Below, one piece after another: positions 13,111-46,229 of a DNA stretch of 64,000 nucleotides. Position 1 is the stretch's first letter, and every line of letters begins with the position of its first letter. The notes below the pieces were generated by a model. The model ran no database searches, was not told the DNA's origin, and saw nothing but the letters and a program-made list of their open reading frames with translations. The stretch lies in IMG/VR virus record IMGVR_UViG_3300010399_000002, positions 32,001 to 96,000 of that record, one strand, 5' to 3'. The stretch is from a virus. A program made the translations under genes and the position numbers.

Positions 13111-13739
13111 TTTCCACCTCCTACGTAACCTAGAAACTCAGCTTTCACATCTGGCTTCTTGAAGCAACCTCGCAACGCGGTCGTGATGGTTGTAGCCTGC
13201 GCCTTCTTAACCCCACGTACGCTCATACAAGTATGAAGTGCTGAAATACACGCGCCGCAACCTTTTGGCTGCACCACCTTTTGAAACACGTCAACGATCT
13301 GACTGGTTAAAAGTTCTTGCAACTGTGGACGCTTACTCAACACATCTATTAAGCGACCTATCTTGGACAGGCCTACGAGCTTTTTTCCTGGAAGATAGGC
13401 GAAGTGAACGTGTCCTATGAACGGCAACAGATGATGGGCGCACCACGAAACGAACTCAACGTCTTTAACTATGACCATCTGATCGTACTGATGATTGGGG
13501 AAGCCTGTCACCTTTGTTATAGAACTCGATAGAACTGAGGCTGGATCTGCTCCCAACCCCATAAGCAACTCGTCTTCGTACATGCGCACAACACGATTGG
13601 GCGTATCGGCGACATGGGGTTCTAATTCTTGTGGTGCATCTGCGAGCATTAATCGTAGACCGCGACCTACCACCAAAGACCAATGCGTCCCGTGAGTCTC
13701 AATAACACTACTTGACTGCACTTTTTCTTGTCTTGGCAT
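13107..13739 (-). CDS. folE: GTP cyclohydrolase I
   Basis: DTPNRV; SWCAHHLLPF.G; GLSKIGR; RPQLQE; HTCMSVRGV. Confidence 0.95.
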   Translation of the reverse strand: MPRQEKVQSSSVIETHGTHWSLVVGRGLRLMLADAPQELEPHVADTPNRVVRMYEDELLMGLGADPASVLSSSITKVTGFPNHQYDQMVIVKDVEFVSWCAHHLLPFIGHVHFAYLPGKKLVGLSKIGRLIDVLSKRPQLQELLTSQIVDVFQKVVQPKGCGACISALHTCMSVRGVKKAQATTITTALRGCFKKPDVKAEFLGYVGGGK

Positions 13740-14457
13740 TGCGTTTTACCGTTCTCCTCAGCATCTTAACCACACTACCTGGATACTTACCTACATCACG
13801 ATTTGAAACTCGAACAACCGCGTAACCTGCTGACTCCCACAACAACGTAGCCTTCACCTTATGAGCTGCGCCACAACTCTGATCGCACTCCAAAATAACA
13901 TTGTACTCCGGTAAGTAAAAATCTGCAATCAATCCTTCTAGCAGAACCTGCGAACTATATCTTATATGTAATACGTAACGCAGAATCTTACGCATCACAA
14001 ACTCAGTTGGTGTAGGCTGGTGGCGGCGAACCTTGGCGTTAGCTAACAAACGCCTTCGACGTATAACTGGATCTTGCCAAGACCTGCGACGACCTCGGGT
14101 CTGCTTGGTACGATAACCCGGATCTTTCCAACGTTCTTGATTAGCTGAACGTGTGTTATCTGCATACTTGACTCGACGATCTGGATTGTTTGCCCAGAAA
14201 CGTTTGGAATTTTCAGACTGCATGGAACGATGCTTACGTGAATGGAACTTCCTAAACCACCTTTTCTTAAATCTTGGATCGCTTCTAACCTTGTGCATAC
14301 TCTTTGCGTGCTTAGCACAGTACGCGGGATCTTGCCAACGAGCCTGCATACTAGCTGACCGCTTAGAAGTAACCGAACGTAAACTTTTAAGGAGCTTGGA
14401 TCTAGACTTCGGATTGGACCAACGAGCCTTCATGGCCTTAGACCTATCGTAACTCAT
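13708..14457 (-). CDS. Basic helical-repeat + Vsr/DUF559-like endonuclease (HEG-like A)
   Basis: W.DP.YR repeats, then PTPTE..IRYSSQ..GLIADFYLPEYNVILECD..GYAVVR; ATG 14457 overlaps the upstream stop. Confidence 0.75.
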   Translation of the reverse strand: MSYDRSKAMKARWSNPKSRSKLLKSLRSVTSKRSASMQARWQDPAYCAKHAKSMHKVRSDPRFKKRWFRKFHSRKHRSMQSENSKRFWANNPDRRVKYADNTRSANQERWKDPGYRTKQTRGRRRSWQDPVIRRRRLLANAKVRRHQPTPTEFVMRKILRYVLHIRYSSQVLLEGLIADFYLPEYNVILECDQSCGAAHKVKATLLWESAGYAVVRVSNRDVGKYPGSVVKMLRRTVKRNAKTRKSAVK

Positions 14458-15545
14458 ATCAGTCTCTCTAATGGTGCCCAACGGCAAGGCTGTCCAGACT
14501 CAGATATGCGCTTGAACGTAATTGCATTGTATATTGCTCGTGCTGGAATACTTCTGCGCAGCTCTTCAAAATCGAATCCATCCTTCTCCACCAGATCTCG
14601 CAAGAACTTGTACGTATCCTTGTTAAGCCCGTCCACTGTACCGTAGCCGCTACTCTTAGCCTCAGTGGTAGAAATATGAACAAGTGATATCCTTCTACGT
14701 GATGGTGCAGTAGTCACAATCTTACCGTAGGCCGCCGCCTTAATCCACGTCGTTGAATCGACACTCCAAAAAGGATAGTCAAAAGCAATTGGGCCAGTCA
14801 CGGCAAACCCGTGTAGTTTGATATTATACCGGTTTGCGCAAGTGAAGACCTGATCGTAATAGAACCTCACATCCTTGCGACTGTTCTTACCGATCTGATT
14901 CAAACCCAAACCCATGATCTTGTGACCTGCATCGGCGTACTTCTCGAACCAAGTAAGCGAATGATCACCATGGTACACAGGCACAGGACGGATACCCATA
15001 TCTTGCAGTTCTGCAGTAGCCTTCCAGATGGTAGGACAATGGCGGCGCCAATCAAACGTTACGTAGAAATCAAACAGACCTCGCGTGGCTCGCACATAGT
15101 CGGCATACAGCGACATGAACTGTTTGGCTTGTTCTTCGACACTACCCAAACGATCAACTTGAGACTTGCCACGAACTACCCCTTTACGATAGATGAGCGT
15201 ATGAAACGAGTGTGCTCCTGAATCGAGAAAAATCCGGTGCCCGTTGCTTAGACAGAAATTCAACGCATGGTAGTGTCTGCGATCGAAGAACGGAGCTGTA
15301 GCTGAACAGTAAGCGAAACTGATACAGCGGTACTTGTAACCCGTAGCTGCAAAAAACTTCTCTTCAGTCTGACCTTTTCCCGACAGCGTCCCGGACAGGT
15401 AGAAAATAGGCTTGGGATCTTTGACCGAAGTACCTGTCCAATCTGATCCTCCGACCCACTTAGGCTGAGTCTTGGGACCCTCCGGGAACGGAAAATTCGA
15501 TACGGACGCTTTTCGCCGTTTCGATAAACCTCCACTTTTTGCCAT
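14454..15545 (-). CDS. TGT-fold (DpdA-like) DNA base-exchange transglycosylase candidate
   Basis: IFLDSGAHS; YVTFD; PVPVYH; KLHGFAV; SVDSTTW; clustered with folE and the queD-like gene. Confidence 0.72.
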   Translation of the reverse strand: MAKSGGLSKRRKASVSNFPFPEGPKTQPKWVGGSDWTGTSVKDPKPIFYLSGTLSGKGQTEEKFFAATGYKYRCISFAYCSATAPFFDRRHYHALNFCLSNGHRIFLDSGAHSFHTLIYRKGVVRGKSQVDRLGSVEEQAKQFMSLYADYVRATRGLFDFYVTFDWRRHCPTIWKATAELQDMGIRPVPVYHGDHSLTWFEKYADAGHKIMGLGLNQIGKNSRKDVRFYYDQVFTCANRYNIKLHGFAVTGPIAFDYPFWSVDSTTWIKAAAYGKIVTTAPSRRRISLVHISTTEAKSSGYGTVDGLNKDTYKFLRDLVEKDGFDFEELRRSIPARAIYNAITFKRISESGQPCRWAPLERLI

Positions 15546-15948
15546 ATATCTCTTCTCTCCTGAAGCATCCGTAAATTCGATCTGCGTTCCCTTTCTTGCG
15601 CTTCACGAACTTCTCGAGCTCGACCTTGGTGATACCACCAACCTGCATACACAACTGAAAGCACCTGTAGATGATACTGCCCTTGCGAGTGAAAGGTATA
15701 GCTGGTTCTCCATTAACGGGTAAGATACCTTTGACGAATTGCACACAGATGGATCGATCTGGACAGAAACGACTGCACTCTTCTGCACTAGCATCATACT
15801 CCTTGGCAAAACAACATCTCTTATCTGCCTGCATTCGATTGTAGCAAACAAGGCAGACCAGCGTATCGACAAAGTACTTAGAAGACAAGATGTCCTCAAC
15901 GGAGTACTTCTTATCACAGATGAGACACTGGATTATTTTGCGACTCAT
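15460..15948 (-). CDS. Cys-rich zinc-binding / putative DNA-binding protein
   Basis: CLIC..CLVC..CCF..CSRFC..C; basic C-terminal region; start MSRKII. Confidence 0.55.
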   Translation of the reverse strand: MSRKIIQCLICDKKYSVEDILSSKYFVDTLVCLVCYNRMQADKRCCFAKEYDASAEECSRFCPDRSICVQFVKGILPVNGEPAIPFTRKGSIIYRCFQLCMQVGGITKVELEKFVKRKKGNADRIYGCFRREEIYGKKWRFIETAKSVRIEFSVPGGSQDSA

Positions 15949-16117
15949 ATCTCGTATCCATCTTTGTGTCTTTGTTCCAACCATCGTGCAACCGCACAAC
16001 AAACCTCATAGTAGGTGCCATCGTACTCAAACTCCGCCATCGGATATCCTTCATCTTGGTCGTCGTGGCAACTAATACAACAAGGCGGATGCCCTTCGAG
16101 ATCGCTACAACGAACCG

Positions 16118-16681
16118 TCACGCTCGCATCCCCAAAACTGTACGCATGTCGTCTGCGGTAACCTGATGTTGCTTGGCTAGCCTTCGGAACTCTCTCCGAA
16201 CGCGCTTGAACTTCCGGCCATGGGTAACCAACCGCCGTTCTCCGGTCAATACATTGGACAAGAACGATTGTAACTCGATTGAAGCCTCTACGTACAGATT
16301 CTGAACCAGTTCTTTTGAACAGTTGTACTCGAGCATGCGATGCTGACTGGGTAACGAGATCGTGTCTATATCTACTGTTGCACCTGGTGGTAGACGCTTT
16401 GATCTGTACATGGTCTCAAGATACGTTACAAAACAGTTGTCTACAACGGTCTGAACGAAGGTAGTGAACTTACCTCGACCGGGTTCCCATGTAGCTCGAC
16501 CGTTATTGGGATTCAAGGCACCCCACGCCCACATGAGTCCCATTTGACTCAAGTCTTCAACGTCGATCCACGACCGAAACTGTATGGGCAACTTTCGATA
16601 GAACGAAATGGCTCGCCCAAAAACCAACCTCTCATACTGTTCCACTTGTACCTCTGGTACGACTCGTTTTTTACGTGGCAT
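16118..16681 (-). CDS. Sigma-70-family factor-like protein (region 2 recognisable)
   Basis: IDVEDLSQMGLMWAW.AL..WEPGRGKFTTFV. Confidence 0.72.
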   Translation of the reverse strand: MPRKKRVVPEVQVEQYERLVFGRAISFYRKLPIQFRSWIDVEDLSQMGLMWAWGALNPNNGRATWEPGRGKFTTFVQTVVDNCFVTYLETMYRSKRLPPGATVDIDTISLPSQHRMLEYNCSKELVQNLYVEASIELQSFLSNVLTGERRLVTHGRKFKRVRREFRRLAKQHQVTADDMRTVLGMRA

Positions 16682-16693
16682 CCCATTCTCACT

Positions 16694-16945
16694 TTATTCT
16701 TCTAAAAAATAACCCGTACCTGGTTCTACTGCTATACAAAGCTTTCGTTTGCCGTGTACTACCTTATCTTGCTCCGCCTTAGCTGCAAGAATCTTAGCCT
16801 CTACTCGTTCCGGATGGTTCTCTACTTCTTCTGCTGGAAAAATTAGAATAGTGTACCCGGCACGATGTAAACGCTTACGCTCACTTACCGTCATAACACA
16901 ACCTTTCGCATCTGCAACAAACGCAGCTTCGCCTTGGACTTCCAT
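16694..16945 (-). pseudogene. Orphan C-terminal half of a DUF559-like domain (remnant or small gene)
   Basis: MEVQGE..KRLHRAGYTILIFPAEEVENHPERV; in-frame TAA a few codons upstream. Confidence 0.45.
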
Positions 16946-17598
16946 TGGCCTATACGAATTATCTTAACCGCAATATCTGGATGGTTAGAAACGTCGCGAT
17001 TTGAAATACGAATAACCGTGTAACCGGCCAACTCCCAAATCTTGGTATATTTACGCTTACTATCACTAAGATACTGGTCAACTTCTAGTATTGCATTGTA
17101 CTCTGGCAAATAGAAGTCTACGATCAATCCAACCAACAAAACTTGAAACCTGTACTTGATATTTAACCTTCGGAGAATGCGCTTGGTCTTTAACTCACTG
17201 GCAGTCGGACGGTGTCTATTTACCTTAGACTTTGCTAACATCTGACGATAGCGGCTCTTTGGATCTCGCCAAGACTGCTCTGAGGCTTTTGCTATCTTGC
17301 TACGTCGAATTGGAGACCTCAGTGCCTTAAGTAATCTTGCACTTACTGCAGGATCATTCCAAAGAGCTTTCAGACTTTTTCGCCTCTTTCTTTGCACTGC
17401 AGGACTCTGACCCGCCTGAAGCAGCCTGGCACGAGTCTGCGAATCAACCCACGACTGTCTGTGACTCTCCACCTGCCTATCCCTATAACTTGGATCTTGC
17501 CAAAGTTTACGAACGCTCTCTGACAACGTACTAGCCCTTTGTTTAGCTCGATACTCTGGATCTGCCCAACGCCTCTTTGCCGCATCAGATTTGTTCAT
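16891..17598 (-). CDS. Basic helical-repeat + Vsr/DUF559-like endonuclease (HEG-like B)
   Basis: RRWADPEYR, LWQDPSYR, LWNDP, SWRDP repeats; PTASE..IKYRFQ..GLIVDFYLPEYNAILEVD..GYTVIR. Confidence 0.78.
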   Translation of the reverse strand: MNKSDAAKRRWADPEYRAKQRASTLSESVRKLWQDPSYRDRQVESHRQSWVDSQTRARLLQAGQSPAVQRKRRKSLKALWNDPAVSARLLKALRSPIRRSKIAKASEQSWRDPKSRYRQMLAKSKVNRHRPTASELKTKRILRRLNIKYRFQVLLVGLIVDFYLPEYNAILEVDQYLSDSKRKYTKIWELAGYTVIRISNRDVSNHPDIAVKIIRIGQWKSKAKLRLLQMRKVVL

Positions 17599-17603
17599 AG
17601 TCT

Positions 17604-18581
17604 TTAAACCACACGAACACCTTCAAAGAACTCCCGTCTTGAAGCTAGCAAACTCGTCATCTCATAATCAGAACATAGACGAACAAATTCAAGATACCTT
17701 TTTCTCTTCTCGGCGTACGACATACACCTCAGCGTACCGCACTTGAGATATGCACGCAACTCGTACAGTTGCTTTTGAACCACCTCACGACAGTCTGATG
17801 GTAGCAACGAATAACCTGTATCTCGTGGAATGACCGCAAGCTGCCAACATTTGTGCACATTGTCCCAATGCTGTTCCAACTGCGGATACGCCTTCTTCAC
17901 CTGGGAAGTAAGTTTAGCAAATCTTTTTGTGGATGGAGTAACACCTGCTAGGATCATGGCACTAGCACGAGCCGGACCTATACCCGCAACTGACTTATAA
18001 TTATCACTGCTGTCCCCAGACAGAGCCTTGTACTCCGCCCATTGGTCTGGACGCAAACCGTGAGACTTGGCTAGATCGAAACTGGCAACAGCGACTGGAT
18101 TCTTGGGCAGTGGTCGAAGCACTCGTACCTTTTTGGAAATCAACTGGTAGAAGTCTGCATCTGTGGAGTAGATCCAAACACGGTTGACTGACTTGTGATC
18201 TTGGCACACCTGACTGAAGATACCTATGAGATCGTCCGCCTCGAGACCGTCAACCCTGAACTGCATGAAGCCCAGAACTTCGATGAATTTCTCTAGCACT
18301 GGCAACTGCATGAATACTACTGCTCGAGCTTCCTTTTGTTCTGGAGTACTCGCACGAGAAGCCTTGTAGGTACTAACGATCTTCTTGCGCCAGACAGATT
18401 GGCTGTCCCAACAGATGACTATCTCCGATGAGTACTTGGACATCAAAGCTCGAAGGCTAGACAAGAAGCCATAAATGATCCCAGTAGGAAAGGACTTGCC
18501 TTCAATTGTAGTACTGAGATTAAAAGCAAAACCACAACGATAAACTATGTTCATACCATCAACTAGTATTATGTCCTTCAA
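17604..18581 (-). CDS. 5'-3' exonuclease / flap endonuclease
   Basis: LVDGMN..YR; CWD; WRK...YKASR; EADDL; STDADF.QL; GDSSDN...V.GIG; TTG start with AGGTG Shine-Dalgarno. Confidence 0.93.
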   Translation of the reverse strand: MKDIILVDGMNIVYRCGFAFNLSTTIEGKSFPTGIIYGFLSSLRALMSKYSSEIVICWDSQSVWRKKIVSTYKASRASTPEQKEARAVVFMQLPVLEKFIEVLGFMQFRVDGLEADDLIGIFSQVCQDHKSVNRVWIYSTDADFYQLISKKVRVLRPLPKNPVAVASFDLAKSHGLRPDQWAEYKALSGDSSDNYKSVAGIGPARASAMILAGVTPSTKRFAKLTSQVKKAYPQLEQHWDNVHKCWQLAVIPRDTGYSLLPSDCREVVQKQLYELRAYLKCGTLRCMSYAEKRKRYLEFVRLCSDYEMTSLLASRREFFEGVRVV

Positions 18582-19369
18582 GCAACACCTCGTGAACGCA
18601 CAGAACTTATTGCCTGCTGTATAGTTGCAATCGCCTTGTCTGGATACTTTGTAACAGTATGATTACTGATTCGTACAACAACGTAACCTGCACGCTCTAA
18701 ACGCCTAGTCGCTAGACGTGTCCGCTTAGTCTGCTGCTGATCAACCTCTAACGCTATATTGTAATCGTACAGATAAAAATCGACTATAAGACCTGCAAGC
18801 AGAACTTGAGAATGATACCTAGTCTTCAAATTGTAACGAAGTATTCTACGCAGGCACTTCTCTGTTGGAGTAAGATTGCGTCTGTATGTAATTGCACGAG
18901 ACTGCAAACGCCTTAACCTAACAGACTCATCCTTCCAACTACTACGTAGACTTTTTGACTTGCGGGCCAACGTCTTAACGCCTCTACTGGCTTTGGCTTG
19001 ATTGGTGCGATAAACAGGATTAGTCCAACGTCTCTTTGCTGCTCTTGACTGTTTAATACGAACCGCAGGACTACTATTAGCTCGACTTAAAGCTGCGACC
19101 TGCGTTAGTCTGAACTGTGGATCTTGCCATAACTTTTTCATCTGAACTGATCTGTCTGCACGTACAATTGGATCTTTGTTTAACTCAATTGTTGCTTTAG
19201 CTTGCTTAGCTCTGTACTCTGGGCTCTGCCAACGCCTCTTAGCAGCACGATAGTTACTAATAGATCGCTTAGCTCGAACAACCGGATCTTTGTTGGCCTT
19301 CTGCTGCTTAGCTCTGTACTCAGGCCTTTTCCACTTTAGTCTCTGTGCTTCTGATCTGGTCACTAGCAA
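18578..19369 (-). CDS. Basic helical-repeat + Vsr/DUF559-like endonuclease (HEG-like C), inserted in the exonuclease 5' end
   Basis: Nine 13-21-aa repeat units; LTPTE..RYHSQ..GLIVDFYLYDYNIALEVD..GYVVVR. Confidence 0.8.
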   Translation of the reverse strand: MLVTRSEAQRLKWKRPEYRAKQQKANKDPVVRAKRSISNYRAAKRRWQSPEYRAKQAKATIELNKDPIVRADRSVQMKKLWQDPQFRLTQVAALSRANSSPAVRIKQSRAAKRRWTNPVYRTNQAKASRGVKTLARKSKSLRSSWKDESVRLRRLQSRAITYRRNLTPTEKCLRRILRYNLKTRYHSQVLLAGLIVDFYLYDYNIALEVDQQQTKRTRLATRRLERAGYVVVRISNHTVTKYPDKAIATIQQAISSVRSRGVA

Positions 19370-19407
19370 TCTCCAATCATACCGTCGACAAGAATGATGT
19401 CTTTCAT
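19363..19407 (-). pseudogene. Stranded 5' end of the exonuclease gene (MKDIILVDGM, then IGDC*)
   Basis: ATG AAA GAC ATC ATT CTT GTC GAC GGT ATG encodes the same 10 residues as the start of 17604..18581. Confidence 0.88.
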
Positions 19408-19565
19408 CTAAGCCTCTTCACCAAGCTCTGTCTGCACCACGAAACAACTCCAATTTCCTTCGCTGCACCGCACTCTCTGCACGAACGACCATTCCGAGCG
19501 CTGTATGAATTATGCGCAACAGCACTCGATAGACCGTGATCTTGTCTTCCGTACTCAACGTCACC

Positions 19566-19784
19566 TTAGTTCCTATCACCGTCGCCCAATACTAGATCTG
19601 CGTCTTCACTTCCGCAACCGGGAGAATCTGATTCTGCAACCGTGACCTTGTCGGTCTCGACGTACAACTGGTATAGTGCGATAGCCTTTCGTACCACTTG
19701 CCTCTGACTGATCTGTTGCTTCTCTGCCAACTTCTCAACCACCTTGGCGTCTTTGTTATTGAGCTGTACTGTGAATTGTGACAT
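19566..19784 (-). CDS. Ribbon-helix-helix (CopG-like) DNA-binding protein
   Basis: QFTVQL....KVVEKLA....ISQRQVVRKAI. Confidence 0.7.
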   Translation of the reverse strand: MSQFTVQLNNKDAKVVEKLAEKQQISQRQVVRKAIALYQLYVETDKVTVAESDSPGCGSEDADLVLGDGDRN

Positions 19785-19790
19785 GGGTCT

Positions 19791-20033
19791 CTACTCCTCG
19801 ATGTAAGTTGCTGTTAGATTTTTGTACTCCAAACTCGTCAAACGAAAACTAGTTCCTGGTACCGGCATAACCTTACCGCAATCACCCAAAAGCGTTGGAA
19901 CATCCAAAACTGGTTGGGTGTACCTCGGCGGTGGAGGCCAGTCCAACTCGATAACCTCAGTATGTCCGTTCAACCTCAACAAATGAGCTGCGCACTTTTT
20001 CTCAGACATCTTCCCTCCATGCCCAATGCACAA
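19791..20033 (-). CDS. Hypothetical protein
   Basis: ORF in operon orientation. Confidence 0.45.
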   Translation of the reverse strand: MCIGHGGKMSEKKCAAHLLRLNGHTEVIELDWPPPPRYTQPVLDVPTLLGDCGKVMPVPGTSFRLTSLEYKNLTATYIEE

Positions 20034-20165
20034 TCATGAAATCGTACAAAGCCTTTTCATCACTGTCGTACGTGTAACCTTTTTGTGCTGCTGAAGCCTT
20101 TTGCCTGCGGATGGCCTCTTCCTCAGTAATCTTCACTGCTGGTTCTCCGCACTCGTTGTAGACTA

Positions 20166-20363: not shown

Positions 20364-21300
20364 ACGCTAACATGGTCATCCGCAAATGCCAACTGAATTT
20401 GACAACTCGTTGCAACACTGTGAGCAACGACTTATCTGAAAGTTCATCGGCCTGTTTACGACTCTTAGGTGGTGGCCAGCACACTAACACATTGTATCTC
20501 TTGTCCAACTGTTCTGCGGTTTGTACTGTGGCTTCGATCCCAACTCGATCCGGATCTGGATATAGGATGATTCTCTTGCACTCGACCTCGATCAATTGTG
20601 ACAACATGGTCTCGGTCAACGTGTGACCCAACATGGCCAATGAACGAGTAGTTCTCCACGCCTCCGGCAATTCACTCATTGTGCGCTCAATGGCTAGAGC
20701 CTTGAAGATACCCTCAGCGATACAAACCGTAGGGGCTGTTGGAACGTTGTTTAGACCCCACAGGTACTTCTCGCCTGGAGAATTGAGGTATTTGATTGGG
20801 CTCCTACCGCTAAAGTCACGGCACACCAGACCTTTTAACTCGTCCTCGTAGAAGATTGGGAAGACTATCCTGTACGCATATCTGCCACTGAGAGACACGC
20901 CTACATGATGCTTTCTTAACAAGTCCTTACTTACCCGACGAGCGTACATGTACTTCTGAGCTTTGCGTACCAACGGATCACTGTCTTCTCTATGCAGCAA
21001 CTGAAAATCGATGGGCAGTTTAACTGGACCTTGTTTCTTGGCCTCTACGGTATCTTGTTCAAGACCACCACCTTGGATAGCTAATTCTCCTAGAACCAGT
21101 TTGGGTGCATCGCGCCCTACGCGCCAGTCACAGTTAAAACAGTGTCCCTGACCCGTAACGATATTGACACCCAAACGGAACTTGATGTCTTCACCTTCCC
21201 CACGCTCGGCACAGAACGGACAACACATCCAGATCTCTTGAGGATCTCCAGTACGCTTGTACCTGATCCCACTGGCTATAAGTGTCTCAAGGAAAGTCAT
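20347..21300 (-). CDS. DnaG-type DNA primase
   Basis: CPFC..HCFNC zinc finger; RIVFPI; KYLN; AEG; DPDRVG (TOPRIM). Confidence 0.9.
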   Translation of the reverse strand: MTFLETLIASGIRYKRTGDPQEIWMCCPFCAERGEGEDIKFRLGVNIVTGQGHCFNCDWRVGRDAPKLVLGELAIQGGGLEQDTVEAKKQGPVKLPIDFQLLHREDSDPLVRKAQKYMYARRVSKDLLRKHHVGVSLSGRYAYRIVFPIFYEDELKGLVCRDFSGRSPIKYLNSPGEKYLWGLNNVPTAPTVCIAEGIFKALAIERTMSELPEAWRTTRSLAMLGHTLTETMLSQLIEVECKRIILYPDPDRVGIEATVQTAEQLDKRYNVLVCWPPPKSRKQADELSDKSLLTVLQRVVKFSWHLRMTMLAYAAQV

Positions 21301-22175
21301 TGGCTACCACTTTTTGATAACTTTAGTAACTTACGCAATCGTGCTTCTGACCTAGCTAAACCTCGAATCAACTGCTCACTTGTAAAACGAGCGACGCGAT
21401 ACTTGTACGCACGAAGAGTTAAATCTCGAAACGCATCTCTACGCTGATTATCTGGGTGATTATGTCTCGGCCCGTCGCACTCAATGACCAATCGAGACAA
21501 AGGAACTAGAAAATCAACTATGCAATTATGTAGTACAACTTGACACTGATACTTAACGCCTAATCTGTTCAACAGATACGACATTATATCTTCTATACCC
21601 GTTGGACGCTTACGCATAGACCTGGCAAAGCAAGTCAGAAAATACTTACGCCAATCTGGATCGTTCCACTGTTCCTTGTGAGTGCGACTTTGATTTATTT
21701 TGACCTTCTCTTTGTAACCAGGTCTCTTCCAACGAGCTGTAACTTCATGCCGAACTGCATCACTTATACGCTGACGATAAACTGGATCTCTCCAATTACG
21801 TTTACCGAGCTTGGACTTCTTATGCCTTGTTCTTGGATCTGCTAGAACCTTTCTCATCCTAACAGATTGTTCGGCCTTGCGTTCTGGTGTCCAGTACTTT
21901 TTAATGACCGCAGACTGCCTTAACTTGTAATCCGAAGTACGGGACTTTACTATAGCTGCTATCTGACTTTCACGCCAAACTGGATCTTTCCACAGAGCCT
22001 TCATGGCAGCTACATGACTCTTACGCCCTGAAACTGAACTGAGCTTCGCCTTTGAAATAGCTGCACCTCGAGCGGCCTTCCAACTTGGATCTGCCCAAAG
22101 CAATTTCATCTTAGCAATCTGATTACGACGACCTTGACGTGTCACCTCACCGGACTTACGTCTCTTCTTCTTCAT
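21297..22175 (-). CDS. Basic helical-repeat + Vsr/DUF559-like endonuclease (HEG-like D)
   Basis: W.DP.WR/YR repeats; PTGIE..IVDFLV..LVIECDGPRH..RRDAFRD..L..YRVARF (canonical DUF559 pattern). Confidence 0.82.
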   Translation of the reverse strand: MKKKRRKSGEVTRQGRRNQIAKMKLLWADPSWKAARGAAISKAKLSSVSGRKSHVAAMKALWKDPVWRESQIAAIVKSRTSDYKLRQSAVIKKYWTPERKAEQSVRMRKVLADPRTRHKKSKLGKRNWRDPVYRQRISDAVRHEVTARWKRPGYKEKVKINQSRTHKEQWNDPDWRKYFLTCFARSMRKRPTGIEDIMSYLLNRLGVKYQCQVVLHNCIVDFLVPLSRLVIECDGPRHNHPDNQRRDAFRDLTLRAYKYRVARFTSEQLIRGLARSEARLRKLLKLSKSGSQ

Positions 22176-23520
22176 AACTTCGAGAACTAACCTCCTCACG
22201 CATCTTTTTAATGGTAGCGTCTCTATCGTATATAAGCATTCTCTCCTTATCACTCATAATGTTGCAACCCACATGCTGTTTGGTAAACTTAGACGCTGCT
22301 ACCCACAAGTACAAACCGTTTTCGTCGTCCCAATCGCCTTGCCCGAGCGATATGGCTAACGTTACCTTGCGGACCTTACTGATGTCTTCTGCAAGACGAT
22401 CACCTGATAAGATCTTGAATGACTCCGTTCCGCGTTGTGTCTGAGCTGCTGTCCAGAGTATCACTTGCTTGCGGGCTGCGAATTGACGTAACTCACGGTA
22501 CACGTCGGCAAACTCCATACGTCGATCGGCTTGCTTCTTCGATGGACGAATCTCATCATCGTAGTCGATAATCACAACATCGGCACTGAAGCCTTGACCG
22601 CGCTCTTTTTCCCATGCGGCTTCGATCATCGGCACACTGAATCCGGACTCCGTACCATCAATGATCTTCAAACGTCCTTTGAGCAGGCGCTTGTACAACA
22701 TGAACCTGTATCTCAAAGTCTTCGTCATGGTCGTCAACTTCGAATACGGCAAATTGGCAACCGCGGCGTCGAACCTATCCTCAACATCGTCCTGAGGATC
22801 TTCGAGTGTAATAAATATGACATTCAGTCTCTGAAGAGTGTATGCCAAAGCCAACCAAAGCAAAGTGAGAGACTTCCCACGCTTGTATGGTGCTATGAAA
22901 AGACCAAGATGACCTGGACCTATGTTCCTGATAAGAAGGTCTAGTGGATCTATCAGGAACAATGGATGCTTCCGATCTTTACTGCTATCTCGACGGGCGA
23001 TGCGGACTTCCAACTCTTTGTTACTGAAGAACTCCGTGGACCGATATGGATCTTTGGAAAAGACATCCACGGCCCCGCGACAGATATCTAACCATTTCTC
23101 ATCGGATAGCTGACCTTTGGCTTGCAAATCTACGATCTCTTCGATGGCTGCTGCCTTGGACTTCTCACGCTTGAACTGCACCACTTTGTCGAGCAGTGAA
23201 TCTGCAGCCAGGATCTTCTTGCGACGCAGGCCTTGTCCGTACTCGGTTAACGAAGTCCTGAATGAATCTTTGGCTCGTGATGATCTGCAATAGTCGAGTA
23301 TCTCCGTAGACAGGAGCTTTCCCAACGGGTGCTTGTACTTCTGGTAGTAGTCTAATGCTAACTGAACGAGTATCCACCTTTCCCGACCGTACTCATGGCC
23401 GTTTCTTGGACGGAAGTCTGCAGCAGTCAACAAATGACTGGATGCAATCAAGAACCTCTTGTCCTTGATCAGAAGAGCTGCAAGCAAATCCTGAAACTCG
23501 CTATTGTCGAAATATGTCAT
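22156..23520 (-). CDS. DnaB-like replicative helicase
   Basis: APYKRGKS; FITLE; IIDYDD; WTAAQTQR; AEDISK. Confidence 0.92.
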   Translation of the reverse strand: MTYFDNSEFQDLLAALLIKDKRFLIASSHLLTAADFRPRNGHEYGRERWILVQLALDYYQKYKHPLGKLLSTEILDYCRSSRAKDSFRTSLTEYGQGLRRKKILAADSLLDKVVQFKREKSKAAAIEEIVDLQAKGQLSDEKWLDICRGAVDVFSKDPYRSTEFFSNKELEVRIARRDSSKDRKHPLFLIDPLDLLIRNIGPGHLGLFIAPYKRGKSLTLLWLALAYTLQRLNVIFITLEDPQDDVEDRFDAAVANLPYSKLTTMTKTLRYRFMLYKRLLKGRLKIIDGTESGFSVPMIEAAWEKERGQGFSADVVIIDYDDEIRPSKKQADRRMEFADVYRELRQFAARKQVILWTAAQTQRGTESFKILSGDRLAEDISKVRKVTLAISLGQGDWDDENGLYLWVAASKFTKQHVGCNIMSDKERMLIYDRDATIKKMREEVSSRSYEEEET

Positions 23521-36585: not shown

Positions 36586-36664
36586 CTAGGAACTGACAGG
36601 CACTGTTGATTGACCGAAGATGGTAGTTGGGATAGGGTTTTCCCACTGAACTTGTTGGAGGAGC
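36586..36664. repeat. Dispersed conserved element, copy 4 of 6
   Basis: ctaggaaCTGACAGGCACT-N15-ATGGTAGTTGGgatagGGTTTT..ttgttggaggagc. Confidence 0.88.
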
Positions 36665-37984: not shown

Positions 37985-37986
37985 AA

Positions 37987-42700: not shown

Positions 42701-44772
42701 AAGCGAATTATCTCCCCTGCATCCTGCATGGCCTTAGCCAAATCTGCAACACTGACCTGAGACTCCTTTAACTGCTTAGTGAACTCTTCCGTCTTCAACT
42801 TCTTCATCTCTTCTTCGAACTTCTGAACATCGTTGGTCAGCTTCTTCCAATCAGATGATAACTGTTTGTTGACAGCCAGAGTTCTCTCAACACCTTCCTT
42901 GTTACTGTTCATCACATTGACGAGATTCTGCAAACGAGTAGCGTACTCTTGTAGGTTCTCGTTTGCTCCTTGTTCGAGTAGCTCTGGTAGAACCCCTCGA
43001 TTCGCCAATACAGCCTGGAGCATGTCCACTTTTTCAAGTAGTGCCTCGACAGACTCCTTGGCGGAACCTACGCCGTCTGCCATGGCCTTCCAAGACTGAG
43101 CTGCGCCTAATTCGGCTACGGCCTTAGCCATCTTTTCTAACTCGGCTTTTGTCAACTCTGTTGGGCGAAGCAACGAAACTACTGCATCCTTCGCACCTAC
43201 TGTAGCCTGAGTGGCCTTCGACAAAGCTAAACCGGCCTCCTTACCTAAATTCTGCCAAGGCAGCACTCCTTCTGCGGCACGCTTCTTTAACTCTTCCATT
43301 GCTGCCCGCTGTTGTGTCAACTGAGCCTGCATTTGTGCATTTGCGGCCTTACTAGCCTGTGCTATGGTTCCTAAAGTATCGTAATAAGCGGCTGCGTCTT
43401 TTTGTGCTTGCTTGATAGCTTCTGGATCGACGCTCGGAACCAGTATTGATCCTCCTTTCTGGTCCTTAGCCAGCGACAACTTTACCTTGTTGAACAGTTC
43501 TGCTGTATCGGAAGCCTCAGCTTCGAACTCGGCCAAACGCTTAATGTAATCCGGCCAAGACTCGTCTGCGCCGATGCGTAACTGATCATTCAGATCTTTG
43601 ATCCCAGACTTCAATTCAATAGAAGCTGTAATAGCTTGTGCAGCATCGAACTGAGCCACGGTGGCTTCAAATTCTTGCTGCTGTTGCCATGCTGACTGTA
43701 TGGCTGTAGCTAAACCAACAAGTCCTACTACAGCCAAACCAACTGGTCCATTCATAGCTGCTAATGCTGGCCCGAAGCTGCTTACAACGCTAACGAGCTT
43801 ACCTACACCTAACGCTACTGGACCGGCAGCGACGGCTACCAAACCAAAAGAAGTAGCAAGAGACTTCACGTGGTCTGGCAACTCAGAGAATGACTTTACT
43901 AACTCGCCTAGACCAGTACCGATCTTCATCACCTGTTCCAACCACTTGTTAACAGTTGGAGTAAGTGCTGTCCCCAAATCGGTCAGAATGAACGTCATCT
44001 TGTCCTGGAAGTTGGACCAGACACCTAACAAGGTCTCGGACTGTCTACCCATCAGTTGTCCGAAATCCCTATCCATGGCTGCGACAAGAACATTCACGGC
44101 ACCAACACCGTCGACCATTCCTTTAGAAGCAATCTTCATGGCTTCACCGGTTGTTACAATCTTACCGGTAGCCTGACCGATTGCGTCGGCAAGGTATTTC
44201 CATGCAGGAATGCCGGCCTCGGCTAACTGCATCATCTCCTCAGCAGAGACTTTGCCTTTAGCACGCATTTGACCCAAGGCCAGAGTGATTCGATCAATAC
44301 CTTCTTGACCCCGACCTAGAGCTGCAGCAGCACCACCGACAGCCTGAAGTGTTGGTATGATCTCCTTTGCAGCGAAACCTAAAGCGAGCAACCGCTGCGC
44401 GGAACTTACAAGACCGGGGAACTCGAAGGGAGTCTTGGCTGCAAAGTCCCGCAACTCTCCGATAAAGTCTTTAGCGGCTTCGGCAGAGTGCAGCATTGTC
44501 TCGAAGCCGATCATAGCCTGTTGGAGCTTGCCGGCAGTAGTCATAGCCGCAGCACCCAATGCTAAAAGCGGAGCACTGAATGCAACGGACATTGTACCGC
44601 CGACAGAGGCAAACGACGAACCCAACTTGGCAACTTTATCGTCTAGCTGTTTGACGGCCTGATCTGTTTGACCGACACTCTTATTCAGACCGGCCAGAGC
44701 CCTCTCAACGTCTCCGGCATTTAAGCCGCGAGCGTCTAACTCCAACATCAACGTGAGAGTATCTAGAGTCAT
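39745..44772 (-). CDS. Tail tape measure protein
   Basis: 1675 aa; FETML.SAE.A..FI.EL.DFAAKTPFEF..QM.AKGKV..EEM.QLAE.GIP N-terminal domain; long coiled coils. Confidence 0.95.
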   Translation of the reverse strand: MTLDTLTLMLELDARGLNAGDVERALAGLNKSVGQTDQAVKQLDDKVAKLGSSFASVGGTMSVAFSAPLLALGAAAMTTAGKLQQAMIGFETMLHSAEAAKDFIGELRDFAAKTPFEFPGLVSSAQRLLALGFAAKEIIPTLQAVGGAAAALGRGQEGIDRITLALGQMRAKGKVSAEEMMQLAEAGIPAWKYLADAIGQATGKIVTTGEAMKIASKGMVDGVGAVNVLVAAMDRDFGQLMGRQSETLLGVWSNFQDKMTFILTDLGTALTPTVNKWLEQVMKIGTGLGELVKSFSELPDHVKSLATSFGLVAVAAGPVALGVGKLVSVVSSFGPALAAMNGPVGLAVVGLVGLATAIQSAWQQQQEFEATVAQFDAAQAITASIELKSGIKDLNDQLRIGADESWPDYIKRLAEFEAEASDTAELFNKVKLSLAKDQKGGSILVPSVDPEAIKQAQKDAAAYYDTLGTIAQASKAANAQMQAQLTQQRAAMEELKKRAAEGVLPWQNLGKEAGLALSKATQATVGAKDAVVSLLRPTELTKAELEKMAKAVAELGAAQSWKAMADGVGSAKESVEALLEKVDMLQAVLANRGVLPELLEQGANENLQEYATRLQNLVNVMNSNKEGVERTLAVNKQLSSDWKKLTNDVQKFEEEMKKLKTEEFTKQLKESQVSVADLAKAMQDAGEIIRLGVLANVAPLNKTMQEVRRGIVDMLDEFYSSRDEVPMLNDVETLRAATDGLRQSLGVPFTFNDPFTGMAITVKALISDFGAAKNAYSDLMNQGSRAAAAFGLSTIIEQQTKLIELEKAYAAAIESRFHTGSQLQEIDMLRMRQRILKDNLSIMIQLGQTKGPEFKNQFEELKVINGQLEKVDEKIQKVTTSTGFWGDSFKKMSQQVSTIVSDFAKNVAEAFISIFKNNNAGLDKQVEDLRRSLEEQTRAWEEYATEASARIEEITATHAAAVEEEQANVRASFAERVHDYDSYVEDIGRRLDELRTTSAEKLAGELEDLRRSLEDRAEAYSEYVQDANTRLARIGEDLSETLADQTRNANRRRSDEDTDYARDKKSNEEKMQSAEQKRLRALANANTDYTRDRQRLSEELRQAESRHDVVRAAEIRTQLQQRTQDHATATRRIQEDYEEETRGLRSELEQRIAAHQTALQRIQEDADEAAANARQNAERQTADINTELGRRAADFAEYQADIHRREQEAITSNAETQRRQEEDLKRSLTQRTEDLERYRAEAEKKLEDITAKHKAQQEKELADLQKALADKLAAYDKYVADNEKKMKELEDEHKNMWDRVVDAGKAAFEALATGILRIMLEEAFKPLAKMIIDWAKDAFKPISDAIRGALSGLGGSAASTVGGAIPMPPWGTSIPGGMPGMGGGAGVAGGIASAGIMGTIGAIGSAVSAVSGIIGNFQMRSMGKDLARMEVTSRETFAELFNLRTDEWARFLMTMEKTDSVQNTLWGKFELLFDKLDYVRTGIVEKFDILINYFTSKMEILFDHIDALRGSLVGTGSQVPSAAAGAVLVPSSLPQLLFNPPSRSRGGGDLLPSRPLPFRSRPGPFPDEDLGGGMQGSNTLRGFYEIFSGLRPHIDPEALAEAYTSSQKVLLDPLVVGITTMTTELRGIHESVDSAADRPLGPFIFQNMTTRDAEFAKTLLADFIRQIKEKGGKVF

Positions 44773-45120
44773 CTAGTGGGCTCCGAGCATTGCACTCGTA
44801 ACAGCGAACGAACGTCCTGGATCTATTTCTTCTTCAGATTGCTCTACCTTCAACGTGGGATACACCTGATCTAGTGCTAACTGCGCACCTTTTTTCATGT
44901 GTGGAACAAGTAACCAGCGTACCGCCGTCGCAAACCTCTGATCCTGACTCAAACCAGATTCCTTGTAACGACGGAGCAACCAGGCCACCTTGCGGAGTGT
45001 CAGACGACGGAAATCGTCTTCGGCAAGGCCGTTAGAAGCACACAGCGACCAAATACTCAGGCACCAGGAAGCTCGACTAGCACGGGCCCCTGGTCCTGCA
45101 CTGTAGGGTCCGCTACGGAC
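44773..45120 (-). CDS. Tail assembly chaperone, frameshifted (T) segment
   Basis: The -1 frame is open from 45120 and reads ..IWSLCASNGLAEDDFRRLTLRKVAWLL.. up to the TMP start. Confidence 0.7.
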   Translation of the reverse strand, partial: VRSGPYSAGPGARASRASWCLSIWSLCASNGLAEDDFRRLTLRKVAWLLRRYKESGLSQDQRFATAVRWLLVPHMKKGAQLALDQVYPTLKVEQSEEEIDPGRSFAVTSAMLGAH

Positions 45121-45566
45121 TCACCGCCTTTAGAGCCAATAGCATCGACCTCATCGGTAGTAGGTGCATCTTCTGACTGGACACCGGCCAGTGCCATCAT
45201 AAACGGCCACATGGTTTCGAGATCCAGCAACCTGCCGACCTGTTTGAGATCCAACTCGGGATGGTGATCGGACAAGGTTGAAAAAACCAGCGCTCTGAAC
45301 TCGCGCATGGGTATTTCTTTCAGAACGTTGAAAACCCGTTCCGCAAGAAGCTTCTTCTTCTCGTCGGGCTCCAACTTTGTTTCGTCGATGTCTTCCTTAC
45401 GAGCACGACGAAACGCGTCGAGGAGCCTGTACAGAGAATCGTAGAAGCTCCCCCCTTTCATTACTTCTTCATACGTCGCCCACGCATTGCCGTTGATGGC
45501 CAAAACGTAGGTACACCCGTTAACGATTACTTCTCTGGACGGGCGTAGTATATCTGATCGCGGCAC
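45057..45566 (-). CDS. Tail assembly chaperone (G)
   Basis: Between tail tube and TMP; overlapped by a -1 frame extension. Confidence 0.75.
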   Translation of the reverse strand: MPRSDILRPSREVIVNGCTYVLAINGNAWATYEEVMKGGSFYDSLYRLLDAFRRARKEDIDETKLEPDEKKKLLAERVFNVLKEIPMREFRALVFSTLSDHHPELDLKQVGRLLDLETMWPFMMALAGVQSEDAPTTDEVDAIGSKGGESVADPTVQDQGPVLVELPGA

Positions 45567-45590
45567 AATATCCCCTTTCTTTTTTGGATC

Positions 45591-46229
45591 CTAATGATAA
45601 AACTTAGCCCTGCAAACCACTCTCGCGATCTCCAAAGCTACTTGATCTGAATGGTGCTTGACCATATGGTTGGAAACACGAAGCAACTTGTAACCGGCGT
45701 CCTTGAGCCTCTTGGTACGAAGCACGTTGCGATCTGTCCCTACGCAATCGTCAACCTCCAACGCAACTTTGTACTCGTACAAATAAAAATCGACGATCAC
45801 TCCAACAAGTGGCACTTGAAACCTGTATCTTATATGCAACTCTTGGAGGATCTCTTTTGTCAGAGACTCTGATAGCGTTGGATTGCGTCTGTAAAATTTT
45901 GCTTGGGACCTGTCTAATCTAGCTTGGTGTTCTCTACTCTTTACCTTACCGCGATGCGCTGCACTCATCTTACGCTTAGACGCCGATGAATGCTTCTTAC
46001 CCAAATGCGCTGCACGCATCTTTTGTATGGATACAGCACTGTGTCTCTTGCCGAAAATGGCTTCGCTTAGCTTTTTCCTGGTAGCAGCTGAAACCACTTT
46101 TCCACGATGAGTCTCACTAATAGCTTTGCGATGCTCAACAGAAATCAACTTACCGCGATGCACTTCACTCATCTTGGCACGGTACTCGGGATTCTCCCAA
46201 CGCTTCTTTAACTCTCCGGATCTGTTCAC
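45591..46229 (-). CDS. NUMOD3-repeat + Vsr/DUF559-like endonuclease (HEG-like E)
   Basis: 17-aa (R/K)K(M/L/I)S..H.GK..S repeats; PTLSE..IRYRFQ..GVIVDFYLYEYKVALEVD..GYKLLR. Confidence 0.8.
   Translation of the reverse strand: MNRSGELKKRWENPEYRAKMSEVHRGKLISVEHRKAISETHRGKVVSAATRKKLSEAIFGKRHSAVSIQKMRAAHLGKKHSSASKRKMSAAHRGKVKSREHQARLDRSQAKFYRRNPTLSESLTKEILQELHIRYRFQVPLVGVIVDFYLYEYKVALEVDDCVGTDRNVLRTKRLKDAGYKLLRVSNHMVKHHSDQVALEIARVVCRAKFYH

Follow-up and report, generated by a model that had tools for sequence, protein, structure and literature searches.

Candidate free-standing Vsr-like homing endonuclease genes with NUMOD3-type helix arrays at conserved gene junctions of an uncultured phage

N-terminal NUMOD modules and a C-terminal Vsr-like nuclease define the Vsr-like or EDxHD family of homing endonucleases (PMC2677866, PMC3239194), represented by I-Bth0305I (Dassa et al. 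2009; Taylor et al. 2011; PDB 3R3P) and extended by those authors to the free-standing Hef enzymes of T4-like phages. The specificity of I-Bth0305I resides mostly in 14 bp under the nuclease dimer, and its NUMOD contacts have been described as largely non-specific (PMC3239194). The NUMOD3 of I-TevI, I-BmoI and I-HmuI is a minor-groove helix that makes sequence-tolerant contacts (PMC3664794).

Here we describe genes of this kind in an uncultured phage with a genome of 114,732 bp (115 kb). The genome carries seven genes that combine a repeat array with a DUF559 nuclease, five of them within the window, i.e., the whole 64,000-nt stretch that was analyzed. These five ORFs, at 13708, 16891, 18578, 21297 and 45591 and termed HEG A to E in that order, were confirmed at the coordinates given by the initial annotation, all on the minus strand; two further members, HEG F and HEG G, lie outside the window. 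With a probability of roughly three in four, all seven are free-standing Vsr-like (DUF559/EDxHD-related) homing endonuclease genes (HEGs) that colonize junctions between conserved genes. The features are as follows.

HEG A, 13708..14487, minus strand: 259 aa from TTG 14487; W-type NUMOD3-like repeats and a trimmed-loop Vsr/DUF559 nuclease (DUF559 31.1 bits)
HEG B, 16891..17598, minus strand: 235 aa; W-type repeats and a trimmed Vsr/DUF559 nuclease (DUF559 31.1 bits)
HEG C, 18578..19369, minus strand: 263 aa from TTG 19369, alternative start GTG 19363 (DUF559 43.2 bits)
HEG D, 21297..22253, minus strand: 318 aa from GTG 22253, start uncertain, ATG 22175 possible (DUF559 52.9 bits)
HEG E, 45591..46229, minus strand: 212 aa; one W-type and five classical NUMOD3 units and a trimmed Vsr/DUF559 nuclease (DUF559 43.0 bits)
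Exonuclease 5′ relic, 19363..19407, minus strand: ATG and nine codons (MKDIILVDGM), then IGDC and a stop
Working exonuclease 5′ end, 18552..18581, minus strand: TTG start, encodes the ten residues of the relic
83-aa ORF, 16694..16945, minus strand: overlaps the HEG B 3′ end; similarity to the nuclease domain in residues 23-53 (its C-terminal strand and helix)

Gene junctions occupied by the HEGs

Pfam DUF559 (PF04480) scores above its curated cut-off of 20.6 bits in all five ORFs (31-53 bits), and the whole genome has DUF559 matches at seven places. The proposed common C-terminal motif is borne out by a five-way alignment, in which T, E, Y, Q, I, D, F, E, D, Y and R are invariant and follow in the same order. 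The N-terminal arrays are strongly basic (net charge +21 to +45), and the nuclease part of HEG B shares up to 78% nucleotide identity with that of HEG A. No close homologue was found among 50,697 deposited phage genomes. The window contains no Rfam intron match, indicating that the HEGs are free-standing.

Each HEG adjoins a conserved gene, as had been proposed. HEG A lies between a TGT/DpdA-like gene and the GTP cyclohydrolase I gene (folE), HEG B and HEG C flank the 5′-3′ exonuclease gene on either side, HEG D separates a DnaB-like helicase from a Toprim primase, and HEG E is located between the major tail/tube protein gene and the next tail gene. HEG-free versions of all five junctions are found in syntenic relatives: the gap measures 24 nt between DpdA and FolE (relative L010, HEG A site), 30 nt between the exonuclease and a sigma-like gene (L008, HEG B site), 42 nt between primase and exonuclease, and 87 nt between helicase and primase (L008, HEG D site), and the tail tube gene directly adjoins the next gene in relative G003 (HEG E site). 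No DUF559 match was obtained in a complete 89-kb relative, and in another relative the DNA polymerase gene is split by a HEG of the same family. Judged by this comparison of gene order, the HEGs are shown to be insertions relative to the conserved arrangement; together with the Vsr/DUF559 nuclease and its repeat array, the empty junctions support the earlier view that the genes resemble free-standing homing endonuclease genes. As the relatives used for presence and absence are distant (30-55% protein identity), they do not document a recent homing event.

The clearest trace of an insertion is seen at HEG C, which entered the 5′-3′ exonuclease gene after codon 10. Homologous exonucleases begin with MK.IVLVDGMN, and the relic, whose stop overlaps the HEG C GTG at 19363, begins with MKDIILVDGM. 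The working 5′ end differs from the relic at 7 nt, six of them synonymous third-position changes and one changing ATG to TTG, and the Shine-Dalgarno sequence of the working gene (GAGGTG) lies inside the HEG C 3′ end. Of the seven HEGs, only HEG C shows a duplicated flank (score 46 versus a background of ~25). Thus, the insertion of HEG C split off the first ten exonuclease codons, and the gene restarts with a synonymously recoded copy. A second trace is the 83-aa ORF, which matches the five-HEG profile (hhalign, E 5.5e-5, probability 66%) and HEG B (BLASTP, E 3e-5), has no Pfam or PHROG match, and is preceded by a frame closed by stops; it is probably the relic of an older HEG.

Several HEGs are tightly packed against their neighbors. 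The likely true start of HEG A, ATG 14457, overlaps the stop of the DpdA-like gene as ATGA, and at the 3′ end of HEG A there is a 32-nt overlap with the folE start; the HEG D stop overlaps the primase ATG, again as ATGA, and HEG B begins 5 nt past the exonuclease stop. By analogy with I-TevI, I-BmoI, I-HmuI and I-Bth0305I, this apparent coupling of HEG translation to the stop of the upstream ORF would hold expression low. The array helices would follow the DNA, placed for the most part in the minor groove and on the backbone, and would provide both affinity and an extended footprint. The nuclease domain, which probably acts as a dimer, would cut the HEG-less allele of the neighboring gene near the insertion point, and recombinational repair from the HEG-carrying genome would then copy the HEG together with flanking donor sequence.

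Alternatively, the genes could serve the phage itself, by degrading host DNA, excluding co-infecting phages, or in a repair process tied to 7-deazaguanine DNA modification. The Vsr fold is indeed also found in repair enzymes, and two of the seven genes sit within deazaguanine-pathway pairs, DpdA|FolE and, outside the window, QueD|QueE. However, the seven genes are scattered over the replication, modification, packaging and tail modules, and the complete syntenic relative, which shares the DpdA and FolE genes, has none of them. Moreover, Vsr repair enzymes lack long NUMOD arrays, and exclusion of competitors is a known by-product of homing anyway, so that we consider a phage function very improbable.

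W-type repeats and the question of a recognition code

The W-type unit has 17 residues with the consensus kLWqDPEYRaKmSeaxK; units open with a helix cap (D/N/S-P or S-x-E) followed by an aromatic residue and R-x-K. The Pfam NUMOD3 model detects it in none of the four ORFs with W-type units alone (HEG A to D). In HEG E, a single W-type unit is followed by five classical NUMOD3 units in exact 17-aa register (Pfam NUMOD3 32.5 bits, cut-off 20.4). This change of unit type without loss of phase, as well as a profile-profile match (hhalign, 95% probability, E 3e-8) and a profile correlation of 0.42 at shift 0 and at most 0.13 at other shifts, indicates that, by sequence criteria, the W-type unit is an in-register variant of NUMOD3. 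The initial annotation had likewise seen in this ORF the link between the two repeat types.

When the entire phage genome was scanned in six frames with a 17-residue HMM built solely from 381 W-type units of unrelated metagenomic proteins (W-HMM), the HEG ORFs matched at E 4e-18 to 1e-4 and no other match fell below E ~1; individual units reached E 7e-7 to 1e-4 in HEG A and E 8e-9 and 7e-8 in HEG B. The unit is common in metagenomes, where it is fused to Vsr-like, GIY-YIG and HNH nucleases. Among the 141 best family matches (≤470 aa), Pfam assigned DUF559 to 97, Vsr to 37, NUMOD3 to 28, GIY-YIG to 11 and HNH_3 to two. Pfam matches to GerD and STI1 DP were also drawn by the W-type repeats and were taken as spurious.

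The most regular array is that of HEG C, where residues ~11-164 form alternating W-type and W-less 17-aa units and residues ~165-259 the trimmed-loop Vsr-like nuclease. Its tryptophans are spaced 34, 34, 34 and 30 residues apart with one W-less unit between each pair, and repeat copies are 102 nt apart in the DNA, in agreement with the pairing into a 34-aa super-repeat noted before. The initial annotation had proposed that shuffling of repeats retargets the nuclease and that the recognition code may be decodable. On such a reading, the units (17 aa, or 34 aa when paired) would stack into a regular solenoid, a few variable residues per unit would contact a set number of base pairs, and the resulting TALE-like code would make retargeting by shuffling predictable. 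Consistent with a solenoid are the five to six HEG C units at exact 17-aa spacing, a whole-chain AF2 confidence that is unusually high for a repeat protein (pLDDT 96, pTM 0.72), a hydrophobic stripe (Y5, M9, L13, W17) that could pack adjacent helices, and the predominance of 17 aa among the family spacings (46%), with multiples at 34 and 51 aa. Against a code, about ten of the 17 positions, instead of one or two, are highly variable (entropy 2.4-3.8 bits), and these are ordinary helix-surface residues. In three of the five ORFs (HEG A, B and D) and in ~40% of the family spacings, the units fall out of register, with spacings of 13, 21, 22, 26, 28 and 30 aa, and full-length 3Di matches in BFVD at rmsd 15-33 Å suggest flexible arrays rather than one rigid superhelix. 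The sequence tolerance of NUMOD3 (PMC3664794) and the largely non-specific NUMOD contacts described for I-Bth0305I (PMC3239194) point in the same direction, making a decodable code very unlikely. What holds of the proposed shuffling is that sister nuclease domains carry unlike arrays, W/N-type in HEG C versus classical NUMOD3 in HEG E, and likewise in HEG G versus HEG F; these differences would fit exchange or rapid divergence of the DNA-binding module, whereas predictable retargeting is unsupported.

Nuclease fold and the trimmed active-site loop

An AF2 model of HEG C built with an MSA (pLDDT 96.3, pTM 0.72) matches PDB 3hrl (Z 14.6), the I-Bth0305I catalytic domain 3r3p (Z 13.9; rmsd 1.8 Å over 90 residues; Foldseek TMt 0.80) and E. 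coli Vsr (1cw0, Z 11.3). By sequence, the five-ORF profile is closer to DUF559/3HRL (E 3e-7) than to I-Bth0305I 3R3P (E 1.2e-4). The nuclease is of the Vsr-like/EDxHD homing endonuclease kind. HEG D, with W-type repeats, has a canonical DUF559 nuclease (3hrl, E 1e-3) that keeps the His and Asp in the motif ECDGPRHNH...RRD.

HEG A, B, C and E group in a single clade whose active-site loop is shorter by ~6 residues. Neither His213 nor Asp222 of I-Bth0305I (His69 and Asp97 in Vsr) has a counterpart in these four, and Asn replaces the Glu that is conserved after the last strand. The initial annotation had missed this loss of two catalytic residues in four of the five nuclease domains. Both residues are needed for I-Bth0305I catalysis, H213A and D222A/N having been used to inactivate the enzyme (PMC3239194), and they are conserved across the Vsr-like family (PMC2677866). 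Because these residues are absent, HEG A, B, C and E may be inactive or work differently.

One explanation is that the four derive from HEGs by decay or domestication and would now merely bind DNA, for instance to regulate genes, to act as nucleoid-like proteins or to block cleavage by a competitor, with HEG D, F and G alone active. The losses indeed affect exactly these four, whereas 60 further family members in the alignment and the nearest outgroup (P0023) retain the residues. However, Thr-x-x-Glu, the Asp of DF and the Glu-x-Asp acidic cluster, useless to a pure DNA binder, are invariant in all five ORFs, and the clearest insertion scar belongs to HEG C. Moreover, the four share their loop deletion yet occupy four different junctions, indicating that they spread after the loop was lost. 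We therefore regard loss of nuclease function as rather unlikely and favor homing endonuclease genes for all seven.

Comparison with known systems

RAP-domain proteins (FASTK family and mitoribosomal RAP-domain proteins) also carry helical repeats followed by a Vsr-like (RAP) domain, and their matches (Z ~8-10.7) cover the last array helices as well. They are, however, eukaryotic organellar RNA binders with unrelated repeat sequences, and the likeness is architectural only. The 34-aa two-helix super-repeat of HEG C and the joining of an array to a nuclease recall TALE/TALEN. TALE repeats are near-identical apart from two residues and hold strictly to their register, whereas the HEG units are highly divergent and irregularly spaced; a TALE-like readable DNA code is not supported.

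By both structure and sequence, the nuclease domain is best matched by the DUF559 'endonuclease-like protein' NGO0050 (3HRL). In contrast to the HEGs, 3HRL and Vsr are single-domain bacterial proteins without repeat arrays, and the intercalating residues through which Vsr reads T:G mismatches are absent in the HEGs. With NUMOD3 (Pfam PF07460), the minor-groove alpha-helix of I-TevI, I-BmoI and I-HmuI, the W-type units share the 17-residue period, the order of cap residue, Glu, Arg, Lys, hydrophobic residue and Ser, the fusion to several nuclease types, and the phase within one array. They differ in having an Asp/Asn-Pro instead of a Ser-x helix cap and a Trp conserved two residues earlier, and in lacking a conserved Gly; the arrays reach 14-15 units, compared to one to three in the studied enzymes.

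Like I-Bth0305I and its family, the ORFs combine an N-terminal NUMOD-type DNA-binding region with a C-terminal Vsr-fold nuclease, are phage-borne and free-standing as in other family members, and conserve the active-site Glu, the first Asp and an extra acidic residue. In contrast, I-Bth0305I is intron-encoded and has two NUMOD2 helix-turn-helix modules instead of a NUMOD3-type helix array, and the EDxHD motif is without its His and second Asp in four of the five ORFs. The modular array joined to a Vsr/DUF559 nuclease thus stands as proposed, but not as a new architecture, which is already published for the Vsr-like/EDxHD family (PMC2677866, PMC3239194): HEGs of this kind, with a Vsr-like nuclease and a short DNA-binding helix array, have already been described.

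Free-standing homing endonuclease genes and their insertion sites

The source record carries direct terminal repeats and is rated complete at 114,732 bp, with the window spanning bases 32001-96000. All five nuclease-like ORFs of the initial annotation are present on the minus strand of the window, and a search with Pfam DUF559 across the whole genome matched seven places, so that the original observation holds and now extends to seven homing endonuclease genes (HEGs), here termed A to G.

Homing endonuclease genes of the phage
13708-14487, minus strand: HEG A, DUF559 match above the curated cut-off
16891-17598, minus strand: HEG B, DUF559 match above the curated cut-off
18578-19369, minus strand: HEG C (ORF 18578), DUF559 match above the curated cut-off
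21297-22253, minus strand: HEG D, DUF559 match above the curated cut-off
45591-46229, minus strand: HEG E, DUF559 match above the curated cut-off and a NUMOD3 match
outside the window: HEG F, 197 aa, classical NUMOD3 units, directly downstream of a small-terminase-like gene
outside the window: HEG G, 295 aa, flanked by QueD-like and QueE-like genes

Two other HEG families, GIY-YIG and HNH_3, have no match anywhere in the phage genome. An intron or intein context was ruled out for the HEGs, as the flanking genes are whole and the window lacks any Rfam match, indicating that the genes are free-standing and not intron-encoded. At each HEG a start is tied to an upstream stop: an ATGA joins the DpdA stop to the ATG of HEG A (14457); HEG B starts 5 nt past the exonuclease stop; in HEGs C (GTG 19363) and E, the GTG start overlaps the stop of a mini-ORF, a relic at C and a six-codon ORF ending in TGA at E; and HEG D ends in a stop that overlaps the primase ATG. 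We infer that the HEGs undergo coupled, low-level translation. The mini-ORF just upstream of HEG E (MRYNPM, window 46226-46246, minus strand) has the Shine-Dalgarno sequence GAAAGGGG, and the stop/start layout there is the same as at HEG C.

The phage encodes a deazaguanine pathway at two loci, the QueD/QueE region (L006, genome 24217-27519, outside the window), where HEG G separates the QueD-like from the QueE-like gene, and a window locus (12378-15545) with DpdA-like, FolE and MazG-like genes and a second T-fold protein. One HEG lies inside each of the two deazaguanine gene pairs.

Searches for close relatives of the phage gave no match in 50,697 deposited phage genomes, either by megablast with 13 kb or by tblastn with ORF 18578. 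Scanning IMG/VR with the exonuclease as a single protein query likewise gave none, and the top exonuclease homologue in a large protein collection shares 37% identity. An alignment-based IMG/VR scan with the exonuclease recovered distant relatives with the common backbone helicase - primase - exonuclease - (sigma-like) - orf15460 - DpdA - FolE - clamp - polymerase.

HEG-free junctions in relatives
helicase and primase: 87 nt gap, relative L008
primase and exonuclease: 42 nt gap, relative L014
exonuclease and sigma-like gene: 30 nt gap, relative L008
DpdA and FolE: 24 nt gap, relative L010

In a further relative (G003) the tail tube gene abuts the next gene. As would be expected of mobile genes, each of the five junctions lacks a HEG in one or more syntenic relatives, the relatives being distant (30-55% identity), and the complete 89-kb relative G004 (the genome of L014) has no DUF559 match at all. 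G004 carries two adjacent DpdA/TGT-like matches (L014 10199-11913) versus one in this phage. In another distant relative (L009 11969-14918) a free-standing Vsr-like HEG of 212 aa, a member of this family that keeps the active-site His and Asp, divides the DNA polymerase gene into ORFs of 617 aa and at least 180 aa; this is the "fractured gene" type described by Dassa et al. 2009 (PMC2677866).

At HEG C the first ten exonuclease codons are duplicated, with one copy on either side of the HEG.

Gene remains next to HEGs C and B
19363-19407, minus strand: upstream relic, ATG plus nine codons (MKDIILVDGM), then IGDC and stop
18552-18581, minus strand: working exonuclease start, TTG at 18581, same ten residues as the relic
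16694-16945, minus strand: 83-aa ORF overlapping the 3' end of HEG B

The upstream relic keeps its ATG and Shine-Dalgarno sequence, and its stop overlaps the HEG C start. Since homologous exonucleases begin with MK.IVLVDGMN, the duplicated peptide represents the real exonuclease N-terminus. The two copies differ at 7 nt, one of which turns ATG into TTG while the other six are synonymous third-position changes; considering position alone, the chance that six random changes in 27 nt all fall on third positions is C(9,6)/C(27,6), about 3e-4. The restriction to third positions indicates that the copies diverged under selection as two alleles, and the scar fits arrival of the HEG together with a foreign copy of the adjacent gene's start. 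GGTATGA is found at both HEG C junctions. Flank duplications were sought at all seven HEGs and found at HEG C only.

The 83-aa ORF resembles, in its middle part, the last strand and helix of the HEG nuclease domain (E 5.5e-5 and 3e-5), and the reading frame upstream of it is closed; it probably represents the remains of an earlier HEG at the HEG B site.

The W-type repeat and its relation to NUMOD3

In HEG C, Trp-to-Trp distances are 34, 34, 34 and 30 residues, each pair with an intervening W-less unit, and at the DNA level the repeat copies lie 102 nt apart. From 381 units of unrelated metagenomic proteins we derived the W-type (Trp-containing) consensus k-L-W-q-D-P-E-Y-R-a-K-m-S-e-a-x-K; in a six-frame scan of the genome, the corresponding HMM matched in HEG ORFs only. 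The classical NUMOD3 consensus from the same protein set is G-r-k-x-S-[E/P]-E-T-R-a-K-[I/L]-S-E-A-x-K (64 units, of which about a quarter, those with Pro at cap+1, may be hybrids). Both describe a 17-residue helical unit with the pattern cap-x-E-x-R-x-K-hydrophobic-S, and a cap-on-cap alignment places D-P-E-Y-R-A-K-M-S-E-A of the W-type opposite S-E-E-T-R-A-K-I-S-E-A of NUMOD3. The two profiles align in hhalign with columns 2-17 on 2-17 (95% probability, E 3e-8), and their column-wise correlation is 0.42 in register and at most 0.13 at all other cyclic shifts. Moreover, HEG E carries a single W-type unit followed by five NUMOD3 units at exact 17-residue steps, and in several metagenomic proteins units of both types are interspersed. 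Because of the hhalign match, the in-register correlation, the phase kept in HEG E and the interleaved arrays, the W-type unit is, as judged from sequence, a subtype of NUMOD3. It differs from classical NUMOD3 in having a D/N-P helix cap in place of S-x and a Trp two residues upstream. The Pfam NUMOD3 model matches HEG E in three stretches (32.5 bits versus a cut-off of 20.4) and gives no match at E ≤1 on ORFs A-D. The literature on NUMOD3 and IENR2 that we searched does not describe the W-type variant, although a description may exist elsewhere.

A profile of the five ORFs, covering repeats and nuclease, matched 20,735 cluster representatives at E ≤1e-3 and 2,094 at ≤1e-10, out of 1.84 billion, and arrays reach up to 14-15 units. 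Among the best 141 family hits of at most 470 aa, Pfam assigned DUF559 to 97, Vsr to 37, NUMOD3 to 28, GIY-YIG to 11 (plus six of LEM-3 type), and HNH_3 and Phage endonuclease I to two each. Given this variety of nuclease types, the repeat is a promiscuous nuclease-associated module, which is how NUMODs were originally defined. Pfam lacks a dedicated model for the W-type repeat; among the same 141 hits it drew matches to GerD (37), STI1/HOP DP (11) and NHase_alpha (4), which are taken to be spurious. An ESM Atlas search with residues 1-165 of HEG C returned a sole match at 0.85, to a viral DUF7487 cluster, under the trusted level.

The nuclease domain and relationships among the seven HEGs

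The residues listed in the initial annotation (T..E, Y..Q, I.DF, E.D and Y...R) are invariant in the five-way alignment, and the five-ORF profile matches 3HRL (E 3e-7) and the catalytic domain of I-Bth0305I, 3R3P (E 1.2e-4). An AF2 model of HEG C built on a 66-sequence alignment (pLDDT 96.3, pTM 0.72) supersedes a single-sequence run in which the nuclease domain was poor (pLDDT 64); it shows ten helices with a break at every Pro and, after them, an alpha/beta domain. The closest structures to the latter are 3hrl (Z 14.6) and 3r3p (Z 13.9, rmsd 1.8 A over 90 residues; Foldseek TMt 0.80 for the C model), ahead of Vsr 1cw0 (Z 11.3) and RAP/FASTK-type domains (Z about 8-10.7), indicating a C-terminal nuclease of the Vsr-type PD-(D/E)xK fold. 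In these PDB searches the matches were filled by the nuclease domain, with the array scarcely represented.

The composite E, D, x, H, D motif of the Vsr-like (EDxHD) family is complete in one of the five window ORFs. None of the five deviates at its Glu and first Asp. The glutamate of T..E, the aspartate of DF and the E.D pair are kept throughout, but the His and second Asp occur only in HEG D (21297). Almost all family members read IE.DG.YWH....D..RD at this place; in HEGs A, B, C and E the sequence is LE(V/C)D(Q/D), and the loop after it is shortened by about 6 residues, with both the His and the second Asp missing. Outside the window, HEG F retains both residues and so does G, with Glu for Asp. 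The motif comprises D196, H213 and D222 in I-Bth0305I and D51, H69 and D97 in Vsr; His213 and Asp222 were mutated to inactivate I-Bth0305I (PMC3239194) and correspond to His69 and Asp97 of Vsr, which are conserved across the Vsr-like family (PMC2677866).

In a nuclease-domain tree, which has moderate support and only 103 columns, HEGs A, B, C and E form one clade (SH-aLRT 80) next to the metagenomic protein P0023 (85), F and G pair (98), and D falls elsewhere. This trimmed-loop clade is present at four different junctions, indicating that it spread after the loss of the His and Asp, and the spread argues for some retained activity. The four proteins lacking the canonical residues offer a test case for a Vsr-type nuclease working without them. 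The five window paralogs share 29-41% identity overall, and sister nucleases carry unlike arrays: HEG C has W-type and W-less units whereas E has classical NUMOD3 units, and G and F differ likewise. Such differences fit a binding module that is exchanged or diverges rapidly.

Target recognition and comparison with known systems

NUMOD3 is the minor-groove-binding helix of I-TevI, I-BmoI and I-HmuI, and the NUMOD3 helices studied are sequence-tolerant binders (PMC3664794); by analogy, the NUMOD3-type units of these ORFs would also bind DNA in the minor groove. The initial annotation went further, proposing that shuffling of repeats retargets the nuclease and that the architecture may have a decodable recognition code. 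Several observations keep that proposal alive: the whole-chain AF2 model of HEG C is very confident, the helices could pack through a hydrophobic stripe formed by Y5-M9-L13-W17, and C and E amount to a natural array swap. The variable positions, the irregular spacing and the published binding data speak against it. Entropy is 2.4-3.8 bits at ten of the 17 unit positions, which are ordinary surface residues, and the arrays differ from those of TALE-like proteins, whose repeats are nearly identical and carry one or two residues for specificity. A constant register is likewise confined to ORF 18578: W-W spacings in HEGs A, B and D are 17, 21, 22, 26, 28, 30 and 33 aa, and across the family 46% of spacings are 17 aa and about 61% are multiples of 17, with 13, 21 and 30 aa common. 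In I-Bth0305I, most specificity comes from 14 bp under the nuclease dimer (PMC3239194). A decodable code is thus unsupported.

The most far-reaching reading, to which we assign a probability of roughly one in ten, has two separate parts. The W-type array would form a regular alpha-solenoid to which each 17-aa unit contributes one helix, with units pairing into 34-aa doubles as in ORF 18578; the solenoid would track the DNA groove and read sequence via variable surface positions. Separately, the trimmed-loop clade may use a rebuilt Vsr-type active site working without the canonical His and Asp. Were the solenoid part true, target choice would lie with the array rather than with the nuclease, which would make the family a programmable binder of natural origin. 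Such a reader would matter greatly, but the evidence here does not favor it. The sister pair C/E can be used to ask what share the array has in target choice.

What stands of the initial interpretation is thus free-standing HEGs with modular arrays, while a novel architecture and a decodable code are unsupported. The main value of the finding lies in annotation and natural history, and its new elements are modest: a common unmodelled repeat, now assigned as a NUMOD3 subtype that the Pfam model misses in A-D, a clade whose Vsr-type active site is trimmed, and an unusually dense, well-scarred colonisation of a single phage by homing endonucleases. The phage is a compact case of the latter, with seven genes of three nuclease lineages, compared with none in a complete syntenic relative. 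It bears one clear insertion scar, at which the gene start is recoded, and the probable relic of an older HEG.

All five window ORFs place an N-terminal NUMOD-type region before the nuclease. BFVD contains phage proteins with the same local architecture, e.g., endonucleases of Bacillus phage SP-15, and the 266-aa entry A7KV39, which matches across the nuclease domain, is probably I-Bth0305I itself. N-terminal NUMODs joined to a C-terminal Vsr-like nuclease are an already published family, known from introns, split-intein loci and free-standing genes (PMC2677866, PMC3239194). Within this architecture, I-Bth0305I carries NUMOD2-type modules, whereas the window ORFs carry NUMOD3-type units.
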